Shown here one piece after another: positions 1-30,079 of a stretch of DNA of 55,910 bases. The position numbers and the translations under genes were made by a program. The notes under the pieces were generated by a model, which worked only from the letters and a program-made list of their open reading frames with translations, made no database searches and was not told where the DNA came from. Position 1 is the stretch's first letter; each line of letters begins with the position of its first letter. The stretch is taken from positions 1 to 55,910 of the IMG/VR virus record IMGVR_UViG_3300036779_000083, one strand, 5' to 3'. Source of the stretch: a virus (taxonomy: Duplodnaviria; Caudoviricetes).

Positions 1-421
1 GACTTAGGCGTGCCCCGACTCGCCCCGCTGTGCTCGGCTTTGCCTAGCCAGCCTCGCCTCGCTACGCCGTGCAAGACCTTGCCCGATACGCCAAGACCAG
101 CTCTGCTCTGCCAGCCTCGACCAGCCACGCCGTGCTTTGCCATACTGTGCAGAGCAGGGACGAGCCCGACAAAGCTGCGCCGAACACTGCCAGCCTCGAT
201 CTGCTACGCCATGCTACGACGGACCGGGACAAGACGAGCCAAACGTTGCCTCGCCAGCCTCGCCAAGCCAGGACTTGCTGTGCTGTGCCATGACGAATCG
301 CGCCGCGCCAGCCTCGATCGGCCGCGCATTGCAAGACCTCGCTTCGCCGGGCCATGACTAACTACGCCAGCTTTGCCACGCTCCGCTATGTAATGCTTGG
401 CTCAGCCGCTCCTGGCCAGCC
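1..421 (-). ncRNA. Pentamer-periodic guide-like RNA array: (GGY/NGC/GTC + NN)n units separated by a 4-nt GGCT; at least 7 units, truncated at window start
   Basis: GCCAGCCTCG-like junctions on + strand at 47,110,189,253,307,366,415 (spacings 63,79,64,54,59,49 = 5n+4 except one 1-nt deletion). Strict 5-nt periodicity between junctions. Lies directly downstream of, and co-oriented with, the RAMP-like operon. Confidence 0.8.
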
Positions 422-454
422 CTTCCTTGCCTTCGACACACCGATCATCCGTTG

Positions 455-476
455 CCTGATCTCTTAAGTGATCAGG
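455..476 (-). other. Inverted repeat/hairpin between accessory gene stop and array (possible processing or leader signal)
   Basis: CCTGATC-N8-GATCAGG overlapping the TGA of ORF 472-996. Confidence 0.45.
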
Positions 477-996
477 TCGCCGGGTGTGCCGCGCCCGGGC
501 CGCCTGCGCGACGCCGAGCGATTTCTTCTTCCAGTCTTTGACGGGCTGCACGAACCATGTCGCAGATCGCCGCTAGGTCGGCGTATCGTGTTTCCCATGC
601 TTCGAGGTCACGCAAAGCAGCAGCTTCGACCAGCCTTTGTAGGTCGCGATTTGTTATGATTTCTCCAGCGCTTCTGTAAGCGGTGCCGATCCCATCACGA
701 ACAGAAACATAAGCATGCGTCGGTTCTTCGATAACCGCGGTCTCGACGTAGATGATGCTGATCAAGTTTCTCGCCTGATCGAGCCGGTATTCCGCCGCCG
801 CTTTTGCGTCGTCCCATTCGAAGTGTTTGTGACACACATGCCGTCGGTTCTGCGCCGCGGTGACGAGATGCTGTGGCTTGAGGCGGCCACCGTTCTCGTT
901 GGTGAGCCGCTCCAATGCTTCGCCGATGGCCTGCGCGTCGGCCTGTTTCGCGTTCTTTAACGGAAGTGGACCGGGCTTAAAACTGTATGTGGGCAT
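472..996 (-). CDS. Conserved phage protein, accessory to the RAMP-like gene and repeat array
   Basis: 174 aa ORF with HKHFEWDDAKAAAEYRLDQAR motif; starts 3 nt after the RAMP gene stop; GGAG RBS. Confidence 0.8.
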   Translation of the reverse strand: MPTYSFKPGPLPLKNAKQADAQAIGEALERLTNENGGRLKPQHLVTAAQNRRHVCHKHFEWDDAKAAAEYRLDQARNLISIIYVETAVIEEPTHAYVSVRDGIGTAYRSAGEIITNRDLQRLVEAAALRDLEAWETRYADLAAICDMVRAARQRLEEEIARRRAGGPGAAHPAT

Positions 997-999
997 GGG

Positions 1000-1875
1000 T
1001 TACTCCGCCGCTTCTGACATCCATTCTGCGAAATAGTCCGATATGTCGGTCTTGGGACGTACGGGCAACGGACCTTTGCCGCGAACGAACTTCATCCACG
1101 ATTCACCCTCTTCCTCGGTGGCGAGATGGAACGCGCCGAACTCGCCGGACTTCTCGGTGCGCCAGTCGCCGACGCCGCACATCACACCAGCATCGCGCAA
1201 CAAGAACAACAGGGTTTCTATCGGAAATGCGTCGGCGTTGAATTTCCCCTGGACGAGGAGAGCCCAGTTTTCGAATTGGGCTCGGTAAGCAAGAGTTGCA
1301 GTTTTGTTCAAACCGGCGCCAACGCGCACCATATCTTCGCGCATTTCCGGTTCGCCAGCGACGATGGGGATCAGCGGCAAAGTGCAGATTGCTTTTTCGA
1401 AGGCGGTTTGAACTCTCGTCATTTGAGAATCAAATTTTATGCTGGCTTGTGACAAAGTTTTCGCAACACCCTTATCTTTATGAGATACCGAGAGAATCGA
1501 CTTCTTCACCGCAGTAACCGGGAAGCCGTACATGCCGTTGCCCATGTCGTAGAGACTCGATATGAAATCGCCGTGGGGGTTGCGTTCCTCACGGCCGCCG
1601 CGCGTGGTCTTCTTTTGTTTTTTCAACATTTCCTTCTTGGCCTTCTCGGACCATGCGTGGCAAATCAGTGGTGTGTCGCCAATCAACCAGATACGGAAGC
1701 GCTTCCAGTTCGCCGGGGTGAGACGGACACCGTCCTCGATATCGGTGAGGGCGCTGCTGCTCTTGGCTTTGCGCTTGGTCGTCGTGGACTTGGCGCCGGT
1801 TATCAAGTCCTTGACCTCGGTGACCTCGACATCGGACTCGATCAGGTTTTCCAGCTTCGTCTTCTTGTTAGCCAT
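1000..1875 (-). CDS. RAMP-superfamily (Cas7/Csm3-like, Vipr-like) RNA-binding protein
   Basis: N-terminal beta-strand IWLIGDTPL, FPVTAVKKSI (cf. iPgsslKGal), C-terminal glycine-rich loop GVGDWRTEKSGEFGAF; AGGAG RBS; no other cas genes nearby. Confidence 0.75.
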   Translation of the reverse strand: MANKKTKLENLIESDVEVTEVKDLITGAKSTTTKRKAKSSSALTDIEDGVRLTPANWKRFRIWLIGDTPLICHAWSEKAKKEMLKKQKKTTRGGREERNPHGDFISSLYDMGNGMYGFPVTAVKKSILSVSHKDKGVAKTLSQASIKFDSQMTRVQTAFEKAICTLPLIPIVAGEPEMREDMVRVGAGLNKTATLAYRAQFENWALLVQGKFNADAFPIETLLFLLRDAGVMCGVGDWRTEKSGEFGAFHLATEEEGESWMKFVRGKGPLPVRPKTDISDYFAEWMSEAAE

Positions 1876-2090
1876 GACATGGTGCTCCTGTGAAAATAGG
1901 GTCGAGGCGAAAACACCTCATCTCTGTCAGTGCACATTACAAACTCGTTTGCAAGCACGGGTTACAGCGACTATACCAATGCACAGGGCCGGATCACACC
2001 AACGTATAATGCGAGCTTACAGTTCACCTGACTACACGTAACGACACCTAACAACTCCTAACAACATCCGAGGACTTCCGAGGACTTTCG
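1876..2090. promoter_or_regulatory. Divergent control region between RAMP operon and cro-like gene
   Basis: AT-richer intergenic region; TTGCAA(1949)-N17-TATACC(1972) promoter-like on +; 10-bp-periodic repeats at 2037-2086. Confidence 0.4.
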
Positions 2091-2360
2091 ATGAGCGCCA
2101 AAAAGATGCCGACTCCGCGCACCCCGCCGGGTCGTCGCCCCGAGAACCCGCCGACCGATGTGACGAAAATTCGCACCGCCGATCAGGCGCTCGACTACGT
2201 CAAGACCGCCGAGATCGAGCTGGTGATCCGCAAGGCTTGCGGTGGAATCTCACGTCCAGCTGTGCTCAACTGGCGTCGGATTCCGGCAGAGCATTGCCCG
2301 GCGATCGAGAAGGCGACGGGCATCCCCCGCGCGATCCTGCGCCCGGACATCTACAAATGA
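2091..2360 (+). CDS. Cro/YdaS-like HTH transcriptional regulator
   Basis: GISRPAVLNWRRIPAEHCPAIEKATGIPRAILRPDIY signature. Confidence 0.8.
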   Translation: MSAKKMPTPRTPPGRRPENPPTDVTKIRTADQALDYVKTAEIELVIRKACGGISRPAVLNWRRIPAEHCPAIEKATGIPRAILRPDIYK

Positions 2361-2374
2361 AAAGGAAGCGGGCC

Positions 2375-2809
2375 ATGGTCGACGACACCAACGCCATCAC
2401 CCAGAAGCAAGTCGAGCCGTTCATGAGGAAGGTCGAGTCCTTCCTCCGTGATCTCGAAAGCGAGCGCGGCGCCTACATGAACCGCTGCAAGGGACTTCGG
2501 ACGGCGATCGAGGAGACGCTCGACGATGCCAAGGCCGCCGGCCTTCCGAAGGCGGTGATGAAGGCAGCAATCAAAACCTTGGAGCTGCAGCGCCGAATCA
2601 ATAAGCTCCGCGCCAAGCTCGAAGAGGATGCCGCGCTCGAACACGATATGATCATTGCCGCAGTCGAGGGGATGGAAGATTTGCCGCTCGGGATCGCAGC
2701 CGTCGAGCGCGAGAAGCGGGAGGCCGCCGAGCGCAAGCTGCGTAAAAGCCGCAAGCGTAGCGCAGCGGTCGACAAGCTGGCCGGCGAGGGCGACGAGGTG
2801 ATGCATTGA
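2375..2809 (+). CDS. GapR/DUF2312-like DNA-binding protein
   Basis: FMRKVESFLRDLESER...DDAKAAGLPKAVMKAAIK pattern resembles DUF2312; alternative start 2357. Confidence 0.55.
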   Translation: MVDDTNAITQKQVEPFMRKVESFLRDLESERGAYMNRCKGLRTAIEETLDDAKAAGLPKAVMKAAIKTLELQRRINKLRAKLEEDAALEHDMIIAAVEGMEDLPLGIAAVEREKREAAERKLRKSRKRSAAVDKLAGEGDEVMH

Positions 2810-2931
2810 GCGGCTGGATGCTCCGACGAGAGCCGTGGCAGCTCGTTCTGATGGGTGCGCTCGCCGGAGTATTGATGTTTGGATTGGGAATGTGGGTCGG
2901 CAGTTGGCATTGAAAGAAACGGGATGAAAAA

Positions 2932-3297
2932 ATGACACTTCTCGACGAGGTAATCGACTTTGCACAGCGCAACGCGGAAGCGGCAAAAATCCATTGGGAT
3001 CGCGAGACGTGGCAGGTCCACCACGACAAGTGCGTCAAAGTCCGCGCCGAGATCACCAAGCTGTGCTCCGAACTCGCCGAAGTAAAAGCTGCGCGGGCAA
3101 CTGAATGGGCCGGCTTCAAGACGGCATGGGATATCCAAGCGAGCGCGCTAGAGGCGGCCCTTGCTGAAGTCGCCGACCGGAATCGCAGGATTGCGGAGTT
3201 GGAGCGCGAGTTGTTAGTCGGATGGGCCGTGAGCCTCGCCGACCGGGACCGGCGGATAGCGCAACCCAAGGCGTTCACTGAGGAGGAAAATTCGTGA
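2932..3297 (+). CDS. Hypothetical coiled-coil protein
   Basis: 121 aa ORF; GTGA overlap with the next gene. Confidence 0.6.
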   Translation: MTLLDEVIDFAQRNAEAAKIHWDRETWQVHHDKCVKVRAEITKLCSELAEVKAARATEWAGFKTAWDIQASALEAALAEVADRNRRIAELERELLVGWAVSLADRDRRIAQPKAFTEEENS

Positions 3298-3299
3298 AG
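3236..3299 (+). repeat. 64-bp direct repeat copy 1 (copy 2 at 10691-10754)
   Basis: 63/64 identical; contains the GAGGAGG RBS and GTG start. Confidence 0.9.
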
Positions 3300-4322
3300 C
3301 TTCCAGAGAGATATTCCGCCGCCCGCAAGGCGCTCGCCGCCTGTGTCAAGATCGACGAGGTGAAGAGCATTCGCGACAAGGCGATGGCGATGGAGACCTA
3401 CGCGTTCCAGGCCAAGGACGGCCAGTTGATCGCCGAGGCCACCGAGATCAAGATGCGGGCGACCCGGCGCATCGGCGAGATGATGGCCGAGCAGAAGGCG
3501 ACCGGGGTCAGGGCGAAGGGCGGCCAGCGCAAGCGGGGACCTGATACCCCGATCACTCTCGCCGATCAGAAGGTCGACAAAGACCTCGCCAAGCGGGCGC
3601 GCACGCTCGCCGAAATGTCAGCGAAGGAATTCGAAAAGCGGATCGACACCGCGATCACGCTGGCGACCGCTTCAACCTCTGGCAACAGCGAAGTCGTCAA
3701 GCTTGCCCGGGCCGAGCGGCAGAAGGAGAAAAAGACCAAGCGAGCGAAGCGCCAGCGCCAACTCGCCGCCAAGATCAAGAACCTCCCCGACCGCCGCTAT
3801 GGTGTGATCCTGGCCGATCCAGGCTGGCGTTTCGAGACCTATTCCGAAGAGACCGGAATGGATCGGGCGCCGGAGAACCACTACTCCACCGAGGAGACCG
3901 TCGACATCCGCAAATGGCCGGTCGTGCACATCGCCGCCGACGATTGCGCGTTGTTCTTGTGGGCGACCGGGCCGATGATCGAAGATGCGCTCGACGTGAT
4001 GCGGGCGTGGGACTTCACCTACGTTTCGCAGTTTTGTTGGGACAAGGAGGTCGCTGGCCCAGGCTATTGGAATCGCGGCGAGCACGAGCTGCTATTGGTC
4101 GGTACCCGCGGCAAAGTGCCGGCGCCTGCGATGGGCGATAACTTCAGCTCGATGATCCGCGAGAAGAAACGCAAGCACAGCGAAAAGCCGGAGAAGGCTT
4201 ACAAGATCATCGAAGCCTATTTCCCCGATCTGCCGAAGATCGAGTTGAATCGCCGCGGTGAACCACGCGACGGCTGGGATGCCTGGGGCAATGAGGCCGA
4301 AGAAGCGCAGGCTGCCGAATGA
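3294..4322 (+). CDS. MT-A70 family N6-adenine methyltransferase with helical N-terminal domain
   Basis: YGVILADPGW, HY, CALFLWAT, HELLLVGTRG, HSEKP, KIEL, GWDAWGNE motifs. Confidence 0.85.
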   Translation: MKLPERYSAARKALAACVKIDEVKSIRDKAMAMETYAFQAKDGQLIAEATEIKMRATRRIGEMMAEQKATGVRAKGGQRKRGPDTPITLADQKVDKDLAKRARTLAEMSAKEFEKRIDTAITLATASTSGNSEVVKLARAERQKEKKTKRAKRQRQLAAKIKNLPDRRYGVILADPGWRFETYSEETGMDRAPENHYSTEETVDIRKWPVVHIAADDCALFLWATGPMIEDALDVMRAWDFTYVSQFCWDKEVAGPGYWNRGEHELLLVGTRGKVPAPAMGDNFSSMIREKKRKHSEKPEKAYKIIEAYFPDLPKIELNRRGEPRDGWDAWGNEAEEAQAAE

Positions 4323-5317
4323 CGATTGCGTCTGGAAAAACAGCGGCGGTGATTCCGCTACGCGGTCGGAAAGTCCAGCACTACAACCCGGAGAAAGGAC
4401 TCCGCAAGATCGCCGCCGCCAAGGCTGGCGAGGAGCGTGCTCGCCGCGCTCGCGATGCCGAGGGTATGTTTCGTGAGATCGTCAAGAAGCTGAAAGCCCA
4501 GGCCGCATACATCGTCTGGCGCGACGCGGCGATGGCGGCTGTGGTGAAGCTGCGGGGTGGAAAGGGTGGAAAAGACAGTGGTCACCACTCAGGGAAGAAG
4601 GGTGCACTCTCGCCAGTGAGAGTGCACTTACCTGACGCCGATCCCGGCGAGAAGACCGCCCACCGCTGGCGCCGCGACCTCTGCTCGAAGGTCGACAAGG
4701 TCACCGTCGTCGACGAGGCAAAATTTGCGCTGGCCGCCGACGACGCCAAGAACCGGGCGCTGCGCGCCTGCGAACGTCAATCGAAGGGCACCGAGCGCGG
4801 CACCGCTGGCACCGGAGAGTTTGAGCGCTACACTCCGCCGCAGTACATCGAGGCGGCGCGCAAGGTACTCGGCGAGATCGATCTCGATCCGGCGACCAGT
4901 CCGATGGCGCAGAAAACGGTGAGGGCCAAGCAATTCTTCACCGAAGATACCAACGGCCTCGATCGTGAATGGCACGGCCGGGTGTGGCTCAATCCACCCT
5001 ATCATCGCGATCTGGCACCGGCCTTCATCAGCAAGTTGGTGGCGGAGATCGAAGCTGGCCACGTGACCGCCGCCGTCATGCTCACCAACAACTCGACCGA
5101 CACCGACTGGTTTGATACGGCGCTGCGCGCCTGTGCCAGCGTATGCTTCACGCACGGGCGTATCGCCTTCACGACGCCGCCGATCGGCACTGAGGTTGAC
5201 CCGACACAAGGGCAGGCGTTTTTCTATTACGGCGACGATCCGACTCGTTTCGAGGACGTGTTCTGTGTCATCGGCTCGTGCGTGCGCCCGAGCCGACAAT
5301 ATGTTGAGGTTGAGTGA
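4319..5317 (+). CDS. Phage Dam-like DNA N6-adenine methyltransferase
   Basis: YTPPQY, IDLDPA, GL-EW-GRVWLNPPY, GRIAF motifs. Confidence 0.85.
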   Translation: MTIASGKTAAVIPLRGRKVQHYNPEKGLRKIAAAKAGEERARRARDAEGMFREIVKKLKAQAAYIVWRDAAMAAVVKLRGGKGGKDSGHHSGKKGALSPVRVHLPDADPGEKTAHRWRRDLCSKVDKVTVVDEAKFALAADDAKNRALRACERQSKGTERGTAGTGEFERYTPPQYIEAARKVLGEIDLDPATSPMAQKTVRAKQFFTEDTNGLDREWHGRVWLNPPYHRDLAPAFISKLVAEIEAGHVTAAVMLTNNSTDTDWFDTALRACASVCFTHGRIAFTTPPIGTEVDPTQGQAFFYYGDDPTRFEDVFCVIGSCVRPSRQYVEVE

Positions 5318-6075
5318 TGGATACGTTTGTCTGCAAAGACTGCGGTTACAAAATAAATGTACCGCTTACGATCGGGGATGTGAACATCTTTATGAGGCAT
5401 CTACCATTCGGTTATGATGGTTTTCTGCATTGGGAGTACATCAACAAAGCCTTCCCTCGGACGATCACCGGAAGTGATATTGATCTGGCAACTGACATCG
5501 AAAGTCGATTTCGCGACGCTGCCACCATGCTCACGTTCGAGACGACCGACAGTGCCAGTAAGTTTAATCGTAATGAGCGCGGCGACGAGAGTGGTCAAAT
5601 GCGAATGTTTGACCGCCTGATCCGCCGCGGATTTCACCATCACTTCGACATTGTTGGAAAAGAAATTCCGACCAGATGGCGACATCGTTGTTTGGCGAGC
5701 GATGGTTCGGTTTACAGTACCGGCTGGCGCTCTTCAGCAGATGAACGTGTAGCAATCGCCAATGAGGTAAAGCTCATTGCTAGAAAGGCCGATGGTTTGA
5801 CAAAGGACAAATTTGATTTTGGTATTTTGAAAAACACTTGGGCAATTTCCAGTGCATCAACACGAAAGCGATTCGCTGAGTTCATCAAAGAGAATTTCGA
5901 CTATCGTCCGCCAAAAGAGCCAGCGCCAAGCACGGCCAATGAAGCGATTAGAAATGATAAGGTTTTCGAGTACGTCACCGGCAAAGACGAGCAACCGTCA
6001 CCGCCACCGCCGCTAGCTCCACCGCCACTGCCGCCCGATGATAATCGCAACCTACTGAGTTTTTTAGATGTCTGA
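5314..6075 (+). CDS. Hypothetical protein (lower GC, CxxC N-terminus, possible PD-(D/E)xK-like core)
   Basis: 253 aa ORF visibly AT-richer than its flanks; SDIDL...TFE pattern. Confidence 0.6.
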   Translation: MMDTFVCKDCGYKINVPLTIGDVNIFMRHLPFGYDGFLHWEYINKAFPRTITGSDIDLATDIESRFRDAATMLTFETTDSASKFNRNERGDESGQMRMFDRLIRRGFHHHFDIVGKEIPTRWRHRCLASDGSVYSTGWRSSADERVAIANEVKLIARKADGLTKDKFDFGILKNTWAISSASTRKRFAEFIKENFDYRPPKEPAPSTANEAIRNDKVFEYVTGKDEQPSPPPPLAPPPLPPDDNRNLLSFLDV

Positions 6076-8439: not shown

Positions 8440-8796
8440 ATGCGCGAGGCACATCAAATTTTGAGCGAGCTGCGGATCATCGGCATTGGCGGATCACGCG
8501 AGGGTAGGTTCTACACGACGTGTCCGCGCTGCTCGCACACGCGCAAAAAGAAAACCGAAAAATGTCTGACGGTGTGGATCGAACCGAATGGTGTCGGCTG
8601 GTGCTGCAATCACACCGAATGCGGCTGGCAGGGGAAGGAATTCACCGATGAACCTCGATCAGGAAATTTTCCCGCTCGGCAAGGGCGGCGTGGAATTTCT
8701 GGAAGGGCGCTTGATCGACGTGGAGATCGCGCTAAGGCATGGGCTCCATACTGTCCGGTCCGATCGGGACCGGAAAGTGATGGTCCCGGATATTAA
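8440..8796 (+). CDS. Primase zinc-binding domain (stand-alone ORF)
   Basis: CPRCSHTRKKKTEKCL...WCCNHTECGW as in T7 gp4/Twinkle-type zinc-binding domains. Confidence 0.7.
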   Translation: MREAHQILSELRIIGIGGSREGRFYTTCPRCSHTRKKKTEKCLTVWIEPNGVGWCCNHTECGWQGKEFTDEPRSGNFPARQGRRGISGRALDRRGDRAKAWAPYCPVRSGPESDGPGY

Positions 8797-10201
8797 CGGC
8801 TGGGCGCTGGCGATTCCTTTTTTCGAGTATGGCCAGATCGTCAACATCAAGTACCGCAGCTTGCGAGAGAAGCGTTATTGGCAAATGGCCGGCGGCAAAT
8901 CGGTGTTGTGGAATTGCGATGTGCTCGACGATCCGGCGTTGACCGATGGGACCAACCCGGCGGTCATCACCGAGGGCGAATTAGATGCGCTTGCAGCGAT
9001 CACTGCCGGCTGGGTATTCACGACATCGGTGCCAGAGGGTGCGAATAAGCCACGCGGCGATGGTACGGTCGACGAAGGTGATGACGATCGTCAGGGTAAA
9101 TTCCGCTTCATGTGGAATTGCCGCGATCGGCTCAAGCGGGTGAAGCGCTTCATCCTGGCCGTCGACGATGATGAGGCCGGTGAGCGTTTGGCCGAAGAGC
9201 TGGTGCGCCGGCTACTTGCGGCACGCTGTTCGCGCGTCACCTATCCAAAGGGCTCGAAGGACACCAACGCGGTGTTGATGGATGGTGGCGCGGCGTCGGT
9301 GTCGTCGATGTTCAACAGCGCGCGGCCATATCCGATCCGCGGCATCTATAATTTGTCGGACTATCCAGATCGTCGGATCACCACGTTCTCGACGGGGATC
9401 GCCGCCGATCTCTCAGGTAACGATCCTTTGCTCGATGCGCATCTGAAGCTATTCCCCGGCCAGTTCGTGATCGTCACCGGCATTCCGAGCCACGGCAAGT
9501 CGACGTTGGTTTCGCAGGTCGTGGTCAATGCCGCCGCGCTGCACGGCTGGTCATCGCTGATCTTCTCGCCCGAGATGCCAGTGGTGCCGTTCTATCGCGA
9601 TCGGCTGCGCAAGGTGATCGGCGGTACATCAGAACAAGCCGACGACTTCATCGAGCGCTACATTCACTTCGTCGACCACGCGCCGAACCTCGACGACAGC
9701 GACATCACGATTCCAGAGATCATCGACCGCAGTATCGAAGCGGTGCTGCGCTACAATATTCGCATGATGGTGGTCGATCCGTGGAACGAGGTCGAGCATC
9801 TGAAGATGCCGGGCGAGATGATGGTCGATTACATCGCGCGCTCGATCCGTGAGCTGCGTCGCCTCGCACAGCAACAGGGTTTGTCGGTGTGGGTTGTCGC
9901 GCATCCAACCAAAGAGGTGAAGGGCAAAGACGGCAAGGTGACGATACCGACGTTGTACGATGTCGAGGGCGCCGCGCATTGGTTCAACAAGTGCGATCAT
10001 GGTGCGATCGTACATCGTGATGACGAAAACCGGCGCTCGGTGATCGTGGTTGCCAAGTCGCGGTTCGAGGAGCTGGCCGGCCGTCGCGGCAAAATCTATG
10101 TGAGCTTCGACGAGGCTACCAATCGCTTTGAACGTCTCGATGCGCAGGCGCAGCTCCGGCTGTTGCAACAGCAACAACAGGAGGCCGGCAAAAATGATTG
10201 A
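8648..10201 (+). CDS. T7 gp4/Twinkle-like primase-helicase (Toprim + SF4 helicase)
   Basis: VNIKYR, ITEGELDA, AVDDDEAG, KDTN, Walker A GIPSHGKST, VVDPWN, VAHPTK, KSRF; GGGGAAGGA RBS. Confidence 0.9.
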   Translation: MNLDQEIFPLGKGGVEFLEGRLIDVEIALRHGLHTVRSDRDRKVMVPDINGWALAIPFFEYGQIVNIKYRSLREKRYWQMAGGKSVLWNCDVLDDPALTDGTNPAVITEGELDALAAITAGWVFTTSVPEGANKPRGDGTVDEGDDDRQGKFRFMWNCRDRLKRVKRFILAVDDDEAGERLAEELVRRLLAARCSRVTYPKGSKDTNAVLMDGGAASVSSMFNSARPYPIRGIYNLSDYPDRRITTFSTGIAADLSGNDPLLDAHLKLFPGQFVIVTGIPSHGKSTLVSQVVVNAAALHGWSSLIFSPEMPVVPFYRDRLRKVIGGTSEQADDFIERYIHFVDHAPNLDDSDITIPEIIDRSIEAVLRYNIRMMVVDPWNEVEHLKMPGEMMVDYIARSIRELRRLAQQQGLSVWVVAHPTKEVKGKDGKVTIPTLYDVEGAAHWFNKCDHGAIVHRDDENRRSVIVVAKSRFEELAGRRGKIYVSFDEATNRFERLDAQAQLRLLQQQQQEAGKND

Positions 10202-19138: not shown

Positions 19139-19698
19139 GCGACCTCCTCCTTGTTGAAGCCGTTGACCGCGGCCTGCAGCTTGGCGACCTCGGCGCGGTA
19201 GAGATCGCGCGCCTCGGTGATCGAGCCCCAGTGCCATGTGTTTTGGTCGTAGAACGTGCTGTGGTTATTGGGATCGAGCGCTGTCACGTGCATGGTGACG
19301 CCGATCACCTTGCCGACCGCCATCAGAATGTCGCCAGCCTCGCCGACGCGGTAGCGGGTCAGCTCTTTGTCGATCCGCCGCAGCGTGGTGTGCGCCCGGC
19401 CGGCGATCTTTAAGGTGACGTAGGATAGTTGTTCGAACTCGATGCTCGGTCCGATCAGCATGGCGCGGCCTGGGATGTGTGTCGGTCCCGATAGCCACGT
19501 GCGGATCACGAGGCCATTGAGCAACAAGCCGTCGGTGCGCTTGGGTGCGTCCCACAGCGAGTCCTCGCCCTCGGAACGCGGGTTGATTGGAGAGGTGGCA
19601 TCGCCCTCGCGCACGAGAATGCGCGCAGCCACCGACGGGCAACCGGCCCATTTATTGGTATCGATGGCGAAGGCGTAGGATCGCAGCTTGTCGTTCAT
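19135..19698 (-). CDS. Hypothetical protein
   Basis: 187 aa ORF coupled to neighbours. Confidence 0.6.
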   Translation of the reverse strand: MNDKLRSYAFAIDTNKWAGCPSVAARILVREGDATSPINPRSEGEDSLWDAPKRTDGLLLNGLVIRTWLSGPTHIPGRAMLIGPSIEFEQLSYVTLKIAGRAHTTLRRIDKELTRYRVGEAGDILMAVGKVIGVTMHVTALDPNNHSTFYDQNTWHWGSITEARDLYRAEVAKLQAAVNGFNKEEVA

Positions 19699-29014: not shown

Positions 29015-30079
29015 ATGAGCCTTGCCTTCGACGCGAGCCGTCGATCGGTTGATCCGACCGGCACCTCGAAGCTGCGCGGCAAATTTCGAAGCGATCTGCA
29101 ACTGCGGCTTCGCATGCTGCGGGCACAGCTGCGGGTCGCCGTTGTGGAGCATGATGTTCTTGCGTTGGGTCGCGGCGGCATCATGTCTTACCACCCGCCG
29201 GACGTACGCTTGCGCGCATTCAGTCACTGGCTAGAGGTCGCGGTCGCGAGCCTCGTCGCCGGGCATTGGGTGCGCAATTACATCATGCATGCGTCCGAAG
29301 CTGGCGTGGCGGCAGCGGTGAAGGAGTTGAACCTCGGCACCGCTGCCGTCCGTCAAGCATCATCGAACGACCTGCTTGAAGAGCAGACCGTCAACGAGAT
29401 CGTCGGCATCGGCGACGCGATGATCCAACAGGTCACCCGCTGCGCCATGGTGGTGATCCGTCGCGGCATGAAGGCACCGAAAGCTTACGCTATGTTGGCG
29501 TCGGCGTTCGAGAAGGTGGCGCTGTCGCGCACCAAGTCGCTTGCCGACACCGCGGTGGTTGCTGCATATAATGGCGGCAAATTAGATGTGTACGAAGCTG
29601 CTGGGATTACCCACGTTGGGGTCGATCCAGAACTAGAAGGGCGACCGCATGAACGGTCGCCCTCCCGTCGTCCTGGCCAGCCTCGCCTAGACGTGCTTCG
29701 CCAGAACTTGCCGCGCGTGGGCTTGCAAAGCCGCGACGTGCCACACAACGGCGATTCAGTATCTACCACGGAGGTTGGAATTGACCCAGAAATTCATCCA
29801 GGGACCCTACGGTCCGATACCAGTGACGCAGCCACCGGCCACAACCGTCCGCCTGTCAAGCGCCGCCGTTCTCGGTGGAAGGCCGAAGCAGTTGGTGTCC
29901 GTACAGCCGGGGACGAGAAAGTTTGCCTCACCTGCGAAGCTATTGCCGAGGACGCGCCTTACACGACCGCTGAGGCGCGGGAGCTGATCCCAGCTCACCC
30001 ACACTGTCGCTGCAGCGTCTTTCCATGGTTCGACAAACGATTTCGTCGTGACAGTTCATTGGCTGGCGGGCTGTCATGA
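29015..30079 (+). CDS. Minor head protein, SPP1 gp7/Mu gpF (MuF) family
   Basis: DPTGT N-terminus; TAGDEKVCLTC...IPAHPHCRC. Confidence 0.75.
   Translation: MSLAFDASRRSVDPTGTSKLRGKFRSDLQLRLRMLRAQLRVAVVEHDVLALGRGGIMSYHPPDVRLRAFSHWLEVAVASLVAGHWVRNYIMHASEAGVAAAVKELNLGTAAVRQASSNDLLEEQTVNEIVGIGDAMIQQVTRCAMVVIRRGMKAPKAYAMLASAFEKVALSRTKSLADTAVVAAYNGGKLDVYEAAGITHVGVDPELEGRPHERSPSRRPGQPRLDVLRQNLPRVGLQSRDVPHNGDSVSTTEVGIDPEIHPGTLRSDTSDAATGHNRPPVKRRRSRWKAEAVGVRTAGDEKVCLTCEAIAEDAPYTTAEARELIPAHPHCRCSVFPWFDKRFRRDSSLAGGLS

Follow-up and report, generated by a model that had tools for sequence, protein, structure and literature searches.

A guide unit in a VIPR-type array of a tailed phage probably addresses the Toprim motif of a foreign primase gene

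We analyzed a linear IMG/VR virus record of 55,910 bp (IMGVR_UViG_3300036779_000083; CheckV completeness 62%), which in its full length is called the window below, and focused on a degenerate array of pentanucleotides at its very start. This array (window 1–417, minus strand) is, with near certainty, a vrRNA array of VIPR, a phage-borne silencing system, with its unit U5 serving as one of the guides. Judging from its variable bases and from where partial matches to them fall, U5 probably targets the Toprim motif of a primase gene that belongs to another genetic element.

According to three preprints from 2026 (10.64898/2026.04.26.720920; 10.64898/2026.04.26.720927; 10.64898/2026.10.15.759431), VIPR is a CRISPR-like, RNA-guided gene-silencing weapon of phages. 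Types I–VII of the system and accessory genes vap1–6 are distinguished. It is described as combining Vipr, a minimal RAMP protein with an RRM core, a G-loop, and a thumb, with one such accessory gene (vap) and with vrRNAs of 9–16 GGY-NN pentads, in which the variable dinucleotide (NN) pairs with DNA on either strand and a single target nucleotide, mostly codon position 3, is skipped; natural targets are called at ≥80% NN identity (10.64898/2026.04.26.720920).

The variable bases of U5 spell Toprim motif I

Parsed on the minus strand, U5 reads GGC-ag TGT-tc GGC-gc AGC-tt TGT-cg GGC-tc GTC-cc TGC-tc TGC-ac AGT-at GGC-aa AGC-ac GGC-gt GGC-tg GTC-ga GGC-t. In reverse complement, its variable pairs are TC CA AC GT TT AT GT GA GG GA CG AA GC GA CT, exactly the list that a preliminary description of this DNA, made from the letters alone, had drawn from the same stretch (the reverse complement of the minus-strand parse 191..113). 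Placed on codon positions 1 and 2 under the standard code, the pairs give the peptide S-[HQ]-T-V-[FL]-[IM]-V-[DE]-G-[DE]-R-[KN]-A-[DE]-L, which that description had also derived correctly and had taken for the first motif of a Toprim primase. Toprim motif I, as Aravind, Leipe, and Koonin reportedly defined it in 1998, is a hydrophobic strand followed by a conserved glutamate (E-G) at the start of the domain.

The Toprim wording of U5 is not chance wording. Of 400,000 random guides of 15 units with matched composition, a fraction of 4.4e-4 contain the core hhhh[DE]G in frame on one strand or the other, as does a fraction of 9.9e-4 of 400,000 order-shuffles of U5; the extended motif, with a further [DE][RK]x[AV], appears in 2.5e-6 of the random guides as well as of the shuffles. 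The regular expression for this test was chosen post hoc, after the motif had been seen. Shuffled units are thus not just as motif-like, an outcome that the preliminary description had named as one that would speak against its reading. Among the 9 guide lists of the window that were tested, the motif is present in U5 only, and it is found in none of the 12 guide runs called in the similar array of another virus record (L044; see below).

The phage encodes a Toprim motif I of its own (TNPAVITEGELDALA), within a primase–helicase gene (8588–10201; Pfam Toprim_2, Toprim_4, DnaB_C, and AAA_25). In register with U5, this motif agrees at 16/30 bases and 5/15 dinucleotides, close to the “5 of 14” from which sparing of self had been proposed. 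The phage primase shows no significant similarity to the open reading frames (ORFs) that contain the partial matches described next, and no guide beats the shuffled null as a self-match anywhere in the window. The phage’s own, unrelated primase–helicase is accordingly predicted, from its sequence, to be spared by U5.

Partial matches to U5 across sequence collections

The full gapped pattern of U5 consists of 14 NN, or 28 informative bases; scores given out of 30 include the constant pair. We searched viral contigs (IMG/VR), metagenome contigs (JGI), and 802 sampled genomes from the order and the family of the genome with the closest Vipr, that of a Tianweitania. Because scans of the collections accept exact patterns only, partial seeds were used. 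The central seed NN5–12 found 62 loci in the viral contigs, all in frame as [FL][IM]V[DE]G[DE]R[KN], with a best score of 25/30 on a low-GC contig and one of 24/30 reading ERPVFIVEGERKVDR. The right seed, NN8–15, found 34 viral loci (best 23/30), and the left seed, NN2–9, found 15, of which two (L322 and L315) scored 24/30 and read EHTVFIVEGEKDAD. The longer seed NN4–13 found 7 loci in the metagenome contigs, all in frame as VFIVEG[ED]R[KN]A, and 5 of these reached 24/28: L283 and L281, which share a single 45-base site, L282, L280, and L278.

The best score of U5 anywhere was 24/28 (25/30 counting the constant pair), and this 86% agreement passes the ≥80% NN-match threshold that the VIPR authors apply to natural targets. 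When the 8 guide lists of the array were compared with 7 near-target loci, U5 alone scored better than its shuffles.

The best annotated matches lie at the start of Toprim domains

Judged by profile matches, the best annotated partial matches are the start of Toprim domains in phage and plasmid primases. In L282, the site falls on residue 156 of the ORF, and the matches to Toprim_2, Toprim_3, and Toprim begin at residues 158, 166, and 156, respectively; the site coincides with profile position 2 of both Pfam Toprim and Toprim_2. Both of these families score above their cut-offs (Toprim_2, 26.3 bits versus 22.1; Toprim, 23.2 versus 23.1), and an AAA_25 helicase-type domain follows. The best sites found with the left seed (L322 and L315, on contigs G796 and G797) coincide with the first profile position of Toprim_2; the open frames concerned measure 687 and 632 aa, and the scores, 21.5 and 19 bits, are just under the cut-off of 22.1 (E = 2.9e-6 and 1.6e-5). 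The peptide is, as had been proposed, a genuine Toprim motif I: in primase-sized ORFs, the best 24/28 matches fall where Pfam Toprim matches begin.

To sample the wider family, the part of the L283 ORF around the motif served as query in a word search, which retrieved 23 proteins. Primase or helicase Pfam families (D5_N, DUF5906, zf-CHC2, DnaB_C, AAA_25, and Toprim_2/3) were assigned to 16 of them, and all but one share the pattern hV[FWY]hVEGE[KR][KD][AV][DE]xL...ATCN, with the best proteins matching 12/14 residues of the U5 peptide. Among named plasmids and phages, homologs of this region bear the annotations “phage/plasmid primase, P4 family,” “toprim domain-containing protein,” or “DNA primase.” The earlier proposal that U5 targets a conserved replication gene carried elsewhere finds support as far as the Toprim identity of the partial matches goes; its other part, an alphaproteobacterial competitor, satellite, or plasmid as the carrier, is still presumptive.

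A solo vrRNA with a perfect target in sibling phages

The 1-nt-skip code is valid in this phage, as its second, stand-alone vrRNA demonstrates. The head-morphogenesis gene (ORF 29015–30079, plus strand; phrog_758) contains an in-frame insertion of 162 bp (54 aa) at 29634–29795, which carries this solo vrRNA and a hairpin on the opposite strand and is flanked by an imperfect duplication of the segment encoding TEVG[VI]DPE. The homolog in a sibling phage (L301, 300 aa) is without the insertion. Used as an exact gapped pattern, the 11 central NN of the solo guide matched 22/22 bases in two viral contigs, at L301 and L302, and extension of the comparison gave 14/14 NN (28/28 bases) with a 1-nt skip, whereas order-shuffled solo guides reached at most 18/22 on the 66-kb contig G794. 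The L301/L302 site is in frame, with the NN on codon positions 1 and 2 of the 300-aa head-morphogenesis gene (peptide VVTAFNHAKLDTYE), and lies about 30 codons upstream of the insertion point; the window’s own allele (AVVAAYNGGKLDVYE) agrees with the solo guide at about 21/28 bases by hand count. The sibling phages share 74% to 89% nucleotide identity with the window over the structural genes, and tblastn found no vipr homolog in the available parts of their contigs. The solo guide is the only one of 9 guide lists that beats its shuffles on the sibling contigs G794 and G795; it and U5 are equally degenerate in their scaffold triplets. The preliminary description had cast U5 as a guide of a non-contiguous, wobble-skipping RNA-guided system, in agreement with the published VIPR code.

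Unit U1 also reads in frame. Its guide spells [FL]TP[IM][IM][CW][HQ]A[CW], and its best self-match, 15/18, falls on the conserved DTPLICHAW motif of the phage’s own vipr (1652–1678), a score that 14 of 500 order-shuffles of U1 reach somewhere in the window. The reading suggests that U1 is aimed at the vipr allele of a relative; the VIPR preprints report some vrRNAs aimed at relatives’ vipr alleles.

How U5 might act

By analogy with the published system, each pentad would be bound by one Vipr protomer, which would hide the scaffold triplet (GGC, AGC, TGC, TGT, GTC, etc.) and present the two variable bases. These would pair with two out of every three bases of the target DNA, so that the guide would read codon positions 1 and 2 and ignore the wobble position; the outcome would presumably be transcriptional silencing. 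Antisense to the RNA, the 14–15 pairs of U5 would spell [HQ]TVFIVEGERKADL, motif I of a P4-like phage/plasmid Toprim primase, and a perfect NNx target would encode HTVFIVEGERKADL. The likeliest target would be a primase gene that a competing phage, satellite, or plasmid carries, with its exact allele outside the collections searched. This scheme presumes that U5 is expressed and processed, that 4 mismatches are tolerated, and what the real target and its host are.

Weighing the target of U5

A number of results weigh against a primase as the target. The 14-NN pattern of U5 has no exact match in the viral contigs or in the metagenome contigs, and with up to 3 mismatches it has none in the 401 genomes of the order of the Tianweitania genome, in 3 further Vipr-bearing genomes, or in the 2 sibling phage contigs; the near-perfect gapped match in a primase gene that the preliminary description had called for did not turn up. 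A core of 10 NN, allowed up to 2 mismatches, matched 16 times in the 401 genomes of the family, versus 5 times for the backwards control, with none of the matches Toprim-like and the best at 23/30. The collection scans, being restricted to exact patterns, could have missed targets with scattered mismatches. Several of the near-targets are themselves equivocal: the L280 site comes after primase zinc-ribbon matches that are weak and below cut-off, L281 and L283 gave weak P-loop matches only, and L278, L279, and L284 are without a primase signature (the first two match no Pfam family, and the L284 frame, of only 43 aa, was left unscanned). Two fragments found with the NN8–15 seed and L241, found with NN5–12, gave no Pfam match when scanned. 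By our own rough estimates, chance alone should produce a score of 24/28 at some point in about 1e12 positions, and about 3 in-frame chance matches to a degenerate peptide of 10 residues are expected in a collection of the size of the metagenome contigs, so that 24/28 in such large collections is not significant alone. Lastly, no array guide other than U5 beats its shuffles at the near-target loci, and the guides thus do not converge on one element. Since 24/28 is attainable by chance, the argument rests on where the matches fall and not on their score.

One reading of these results is that U5 is a real VIPR guide with a target other than a primase, on either strand and possibly non-coding, outside the searched collections, its Toprim-like wording being coincidental. 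The ceiling of 24/28, within reach of chance by our estimate, fits this reading, as does the fact that the RNA-sense reading of U5 ([SR]SA[FL]RSPST[IM][KN]TV[CW][DE]) was covered only by strand-blind DNA patterns. Units U2 and U4 also lack exact matches in the viral contigs (patterns of 10 and 11 NN, respectively), and missing targets are therefore common for this array. We nevertheless consider a coincidence of wording rather unlikely: hhhh[DE]G appears in fewer than 0.1% of random or shuffled guides and the extended motif far more rarely still; the seed NN2–9, on the one hand, and NN4–13 or NN5–12, on the other, share only 2 of 8 dinucleotides and yet both lead to Toprim motif I in primase-sized ORFs; and the solo guide, with its 28/28 target, and U1, on the vipr motif, likewise read in frame on conserved coding motifs. 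It is because the motif is rare in random and shuffled guides, because the left and the central seeds both reach motif I, and because two other guides read in frame on conserved coding motifs that we regard a foreign Toprim primase gene as the probable target.

If the primase is the target, the guide need not have been made for a single allele. U5 might be a broad, motif-level guide that tolerates a few mismatches and silences a family of P4-like and phage primases sharing VFIVEGE[KR][KD]AD. At least 5 distinct contig sequences from two collections (L281/L283, L282, L280, L322, and L315) match at 24/28 at this one motif, a score above the authors’ 80% threshold, and codon-periodic matching is reported to block mutational escape across all targeted satellites (10.64898/2026.10.15.759431). 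The one validated natural target in this phage is, however, perfect at 28/28, and perturbed NN pairing abolished silencing in the published assays (10.64898/2026.04.26.720920); we consider such breadth quite improbable. A bolder extension, to which we give little credence, would have the vrRNA cassettes be small mobile units that insert in frame beside their own target site, and VIPR guides be written against invariant protein motifs as family-level weapons, with U5 silencing the P4-like Toprim primase class despite 3–4 mismatches; the solo unit would then act as an allele-killer, labeling the phage that carries it as immune while shutting down the uninterrupted allele in co-infecting siblings.

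It is also conceivable that the array, or at least U5, is decaying or no longer functional, a degenerate pentanucleotide satellite that currently has no target. Such decay would account for the low share of GGY among the U5 triplets (6/15), the internal phase slip of U6, the failure of Tandem Repeats Finder to call the array, and the missing U5 target. It is hard to reconcile with the xGY retained in 13/15 U5 triplets, with a solo guide that is equally degenerate and has a perfect target, with the intact open frames of vipr and its neighbor, and with a unit junction, C-GA-GGC-T-GGC, that is exact in 5 copies, and we consider it very improbable. A TRAP-like RNA-binding array, clustered Chi-like sites, a centromere or iteron array, and a decayed microsatellite were set aside given the Vipr homology and the 28/28 target.

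The array, the vipr operon, and the probable host

Period-5 power of 4.4–4.6 at 101–275 (150-nt windows) is the strongest in the whole stretch, where it otherwise has a median of 0.62, a 95th percentile of 1.59, and, beyond position 600, a maximum of 3.70, the last being due to a second vrRNA near 29.6 kb. Tandem Repeats Finder returned no period-5 row in 1–3000, the array being too degenerate for it. On the minus strand each pentad consists of a loosely conserved triplet (GGC, AGC, TGC, TGT, AGT, GTC, or GGT) and two variable bases, and the units are 9–15 pentads long. Exact copies of GCCAGCCTCG at 47, 110, 189, 253, and 307 mark units of 63, 79, 64, 54, and 59 nt, and 4 of these 5 measured units have a length of 5n+4 nt. 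At the inter-unit junction, ...C-ga-GGC-t-GGC..., the 4-nt step GGC-t shifts the phase by -1; this constant junction is 10 nt long and comes with neither a 40-nt 3' tail nor a pseudoknot. The array is thus arranged head-to-tail with at least 7 guide units and probably continues past the contig end (Table 1). In U6, the ATC-g step splits the unit into 6 + 7 pentads, and U6 is either two very short guides or the product of a 1-nt deletion. Further exact copies of GCCAGCCTCG at 19333 (plus) and 34564 (minus) are without pentad structure and were dismissed as chance occurrences.

Table 1. Coordinates of the guide units, the vipr operon, and related features in the window
Feature	Position	Strand	Remarks
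vrRNA unit U7	1..49	-	Cut by the contig end
vrRNA unit U6	50..112	-	63 nt (5n+3); internal 4-nt step ATC-g
vrRNA unit U5	113..191	-	15 pentads + 4-nt junction GGC-t; 14 variable NN + constant “ga”
vrRNA unit U4	192..255	-	Minus-strand pentad parse
vrRNA unit U3	256..309	-	Minus-strand pentad parse
vrRNA unit U2	310..368	-	Minus-strand pentad parse
vrRNA unit U1, 9 NN	369..417	-	Minus-strand pentad parse
Candidate vap (vipr-accessory) gene, 174 aa	472..996	-	No Pfam family; phrog_15946 (unknown function)
vipr gene, 291-aa open frame	1000..1875	-	Profile match to SUSP1 Vipr; Cas7-like model
Phage’s own Toprim motif I, TNPAVITEGELDALA	8951..8995	+	In primase–helicase 8588–10201; not a target
G+C-rich hairpin, terminator-like	29640..29663	-	Just 3' of the solo vrRNA; read from sequence
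Solo vrRNA, 14 NN	29676..29752	-	Constant 3' junction as in the array; inside the insertion in the head-morphogenesis gene

Sequence and fold comparisons both indicate that the ORF at 1000–1875 is a Vipr homolog with a RAMP/Cas7 fold. It has 2,730 homologs and no Pfam domain, and matches phrog_4652 (unknown function). A profile built from 32 homologs matches PDB chain 36pp_D, “SUSP1 Vipr protein,” over 55 profile positions (E = 2.6e-7), and the top Foldseek PDB matches of its AF2 model (pLDDT 73.8) are all Cas7-type RAMPs: Csm3 (6xn3_F, E = 1.8e-4), type VII Cas7, and Cmr, with TM values of 0.34–0.50. The true start may lie downstream, because the first ~50 residues of the model are of low confidence. 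The vipr gene is followed by the 174-aa gene and then the array, all on the minus strand. A homolog of the 174-aa gene is located directly downstream of a vipr homolog in 45 of 58 bacterial genome loci and is also present in L044 (tblastn); this conserved neighbor is a candidate vap. Runs of at least 6 xGY-NN pentads were counted by hand on the vipr strand in 35 of the 58 loci, with a caller that had no shuffled control. The closest genomic relatives of the Vipr are found in Tianweitania (54% identity), Rhizobium, Phyllobacterium, and Mesorhizobium; the phage host is therefore probably a member of the Rhizobiales.

Megablast of window 1–6000 against named phages gave no match. The pattern GCCAGCCTCG-N42-72-GCCAGCCTCG occurs at no fewer than 119 loci in the viral contigs, nearly all of them coding repeats of 15 or 18 nt, and among the matches listed, L044 is the only array of the same kind as that at window 1–417. 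In L044 (IMGVR_UViG_2935483490_000002, locus ~1510–3065), a homolog of the 174-aa gene (46% identity) precedes an array some 1.6 kb long, whose junction is that of window 1–417, in GCCAGCCTCG and GCCGGCCT[CT]G variants; the dozens of guides in this array could be mined for targets.

Two further observations concern the neighborhood of the operon. Short tandem repeats at 2025–2091 (CACCTAACAA x4.2 and TCCGAGGACT x2.5) lie where the vipr operon and the rightward early genes diverge and may be operators or iterons. Two adjacent genes for DNA adenine methyltransferases, one of the MT-A70 family and one of the Dam family, are found at 3294–5317.

Comparison with known systems

In the accessible parts of the preprints, experimental work on VIPR is confined to type II systems of enterobacterial and Pseudomonas phages. 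The phage described here is GC-rich, has its closest Vipr relatives in Rhizobiales-type genomes, and uses the same 1-nt-skip code with a loose scaffold and a tail-less array. It offers two guide–target pairs: a perfect match to the head-morphogenesis gene of a sibling and a prediction that points to the catalytic Toprim motif in a foreign primase. Should the prediction hold, “escape-proof, codon-periodic targeting of an essential gene” would extend from a satellite recombinase to replication genes. The 2,730 Vipr homologs carry no Pfam annotation, and many such arrays thus remain unannotated.

With type II VIPR, known from Escherichia phage SUSP1 and a Pseudomonas fulva prophage, the system shares a Vipr RAMP with sequence homology to SUSP1 Vipr, a two-gene operon followed by same-strand guides, the triplet-plus-NN pentads (9–15 per unit here), the 1-nt skip at the wobble position, a natural target in a related phage, and the lack of a self-target above the null. 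It differs from type II in its loose scaffold (GGC, AGC, TGC, TGT, AGT, GTC, and GGT versus strict GGY) and in having only the 10-nt junction in place of an invariable structured 3' tail. The missing tail argues against type II and not against VIPR, since tail-less “staggered vrRNA arrays” are described for other types (fig. S18 legend, 10.64898/2026.04.26.720920); as far as that figure legend allows a comparison, 4 of the 5 units here, 5n+4 nt long and joined by GGC-t-GGC, resemble these arrays. The open frame of 291 aa (about 250 aa is typical of the family) is longer than the 202-residue PDB chain of SUSP1 Vipr, and the guides do not converge on one element, unlike in the SUSP1 case as it appears in the accessible text.

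Like the solo vrRNAs reported for F5 satellites and SUSP1-family phages (10.64898/2026.10.15.759431, accessible part), the solo unit stands alone, away from the vipr operon, and is aimed at a relative; here, it resides in an in-frame insertion and is aimed at the siblings’ allele of the very head-morphogenesis gene that houses it. Such an arrangement was not met in the accessible parts of the three preprints, the literature having been searched for VIPR only. With the backbones of class 1 CRISPR-Cas systems (Cas7, Csm3, or Cmr4 on crRNA), Vipr shares the fold and, according to the VIPR papers, a thumb that periodically breaks the guide–target duplex, whereas CRISPR repeats, cas1, and cas2 are absent and each protomer presents 2 pairing bases at a period of 5, versus 5 at a period of 6. 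VIPR itself is already known, and what this phage adds is a looser scaffold and a tail-less, phase-shifting (“staggered”-like) array, the solo vrRNA in the head-morphogenesis insertion being its more unusual item.

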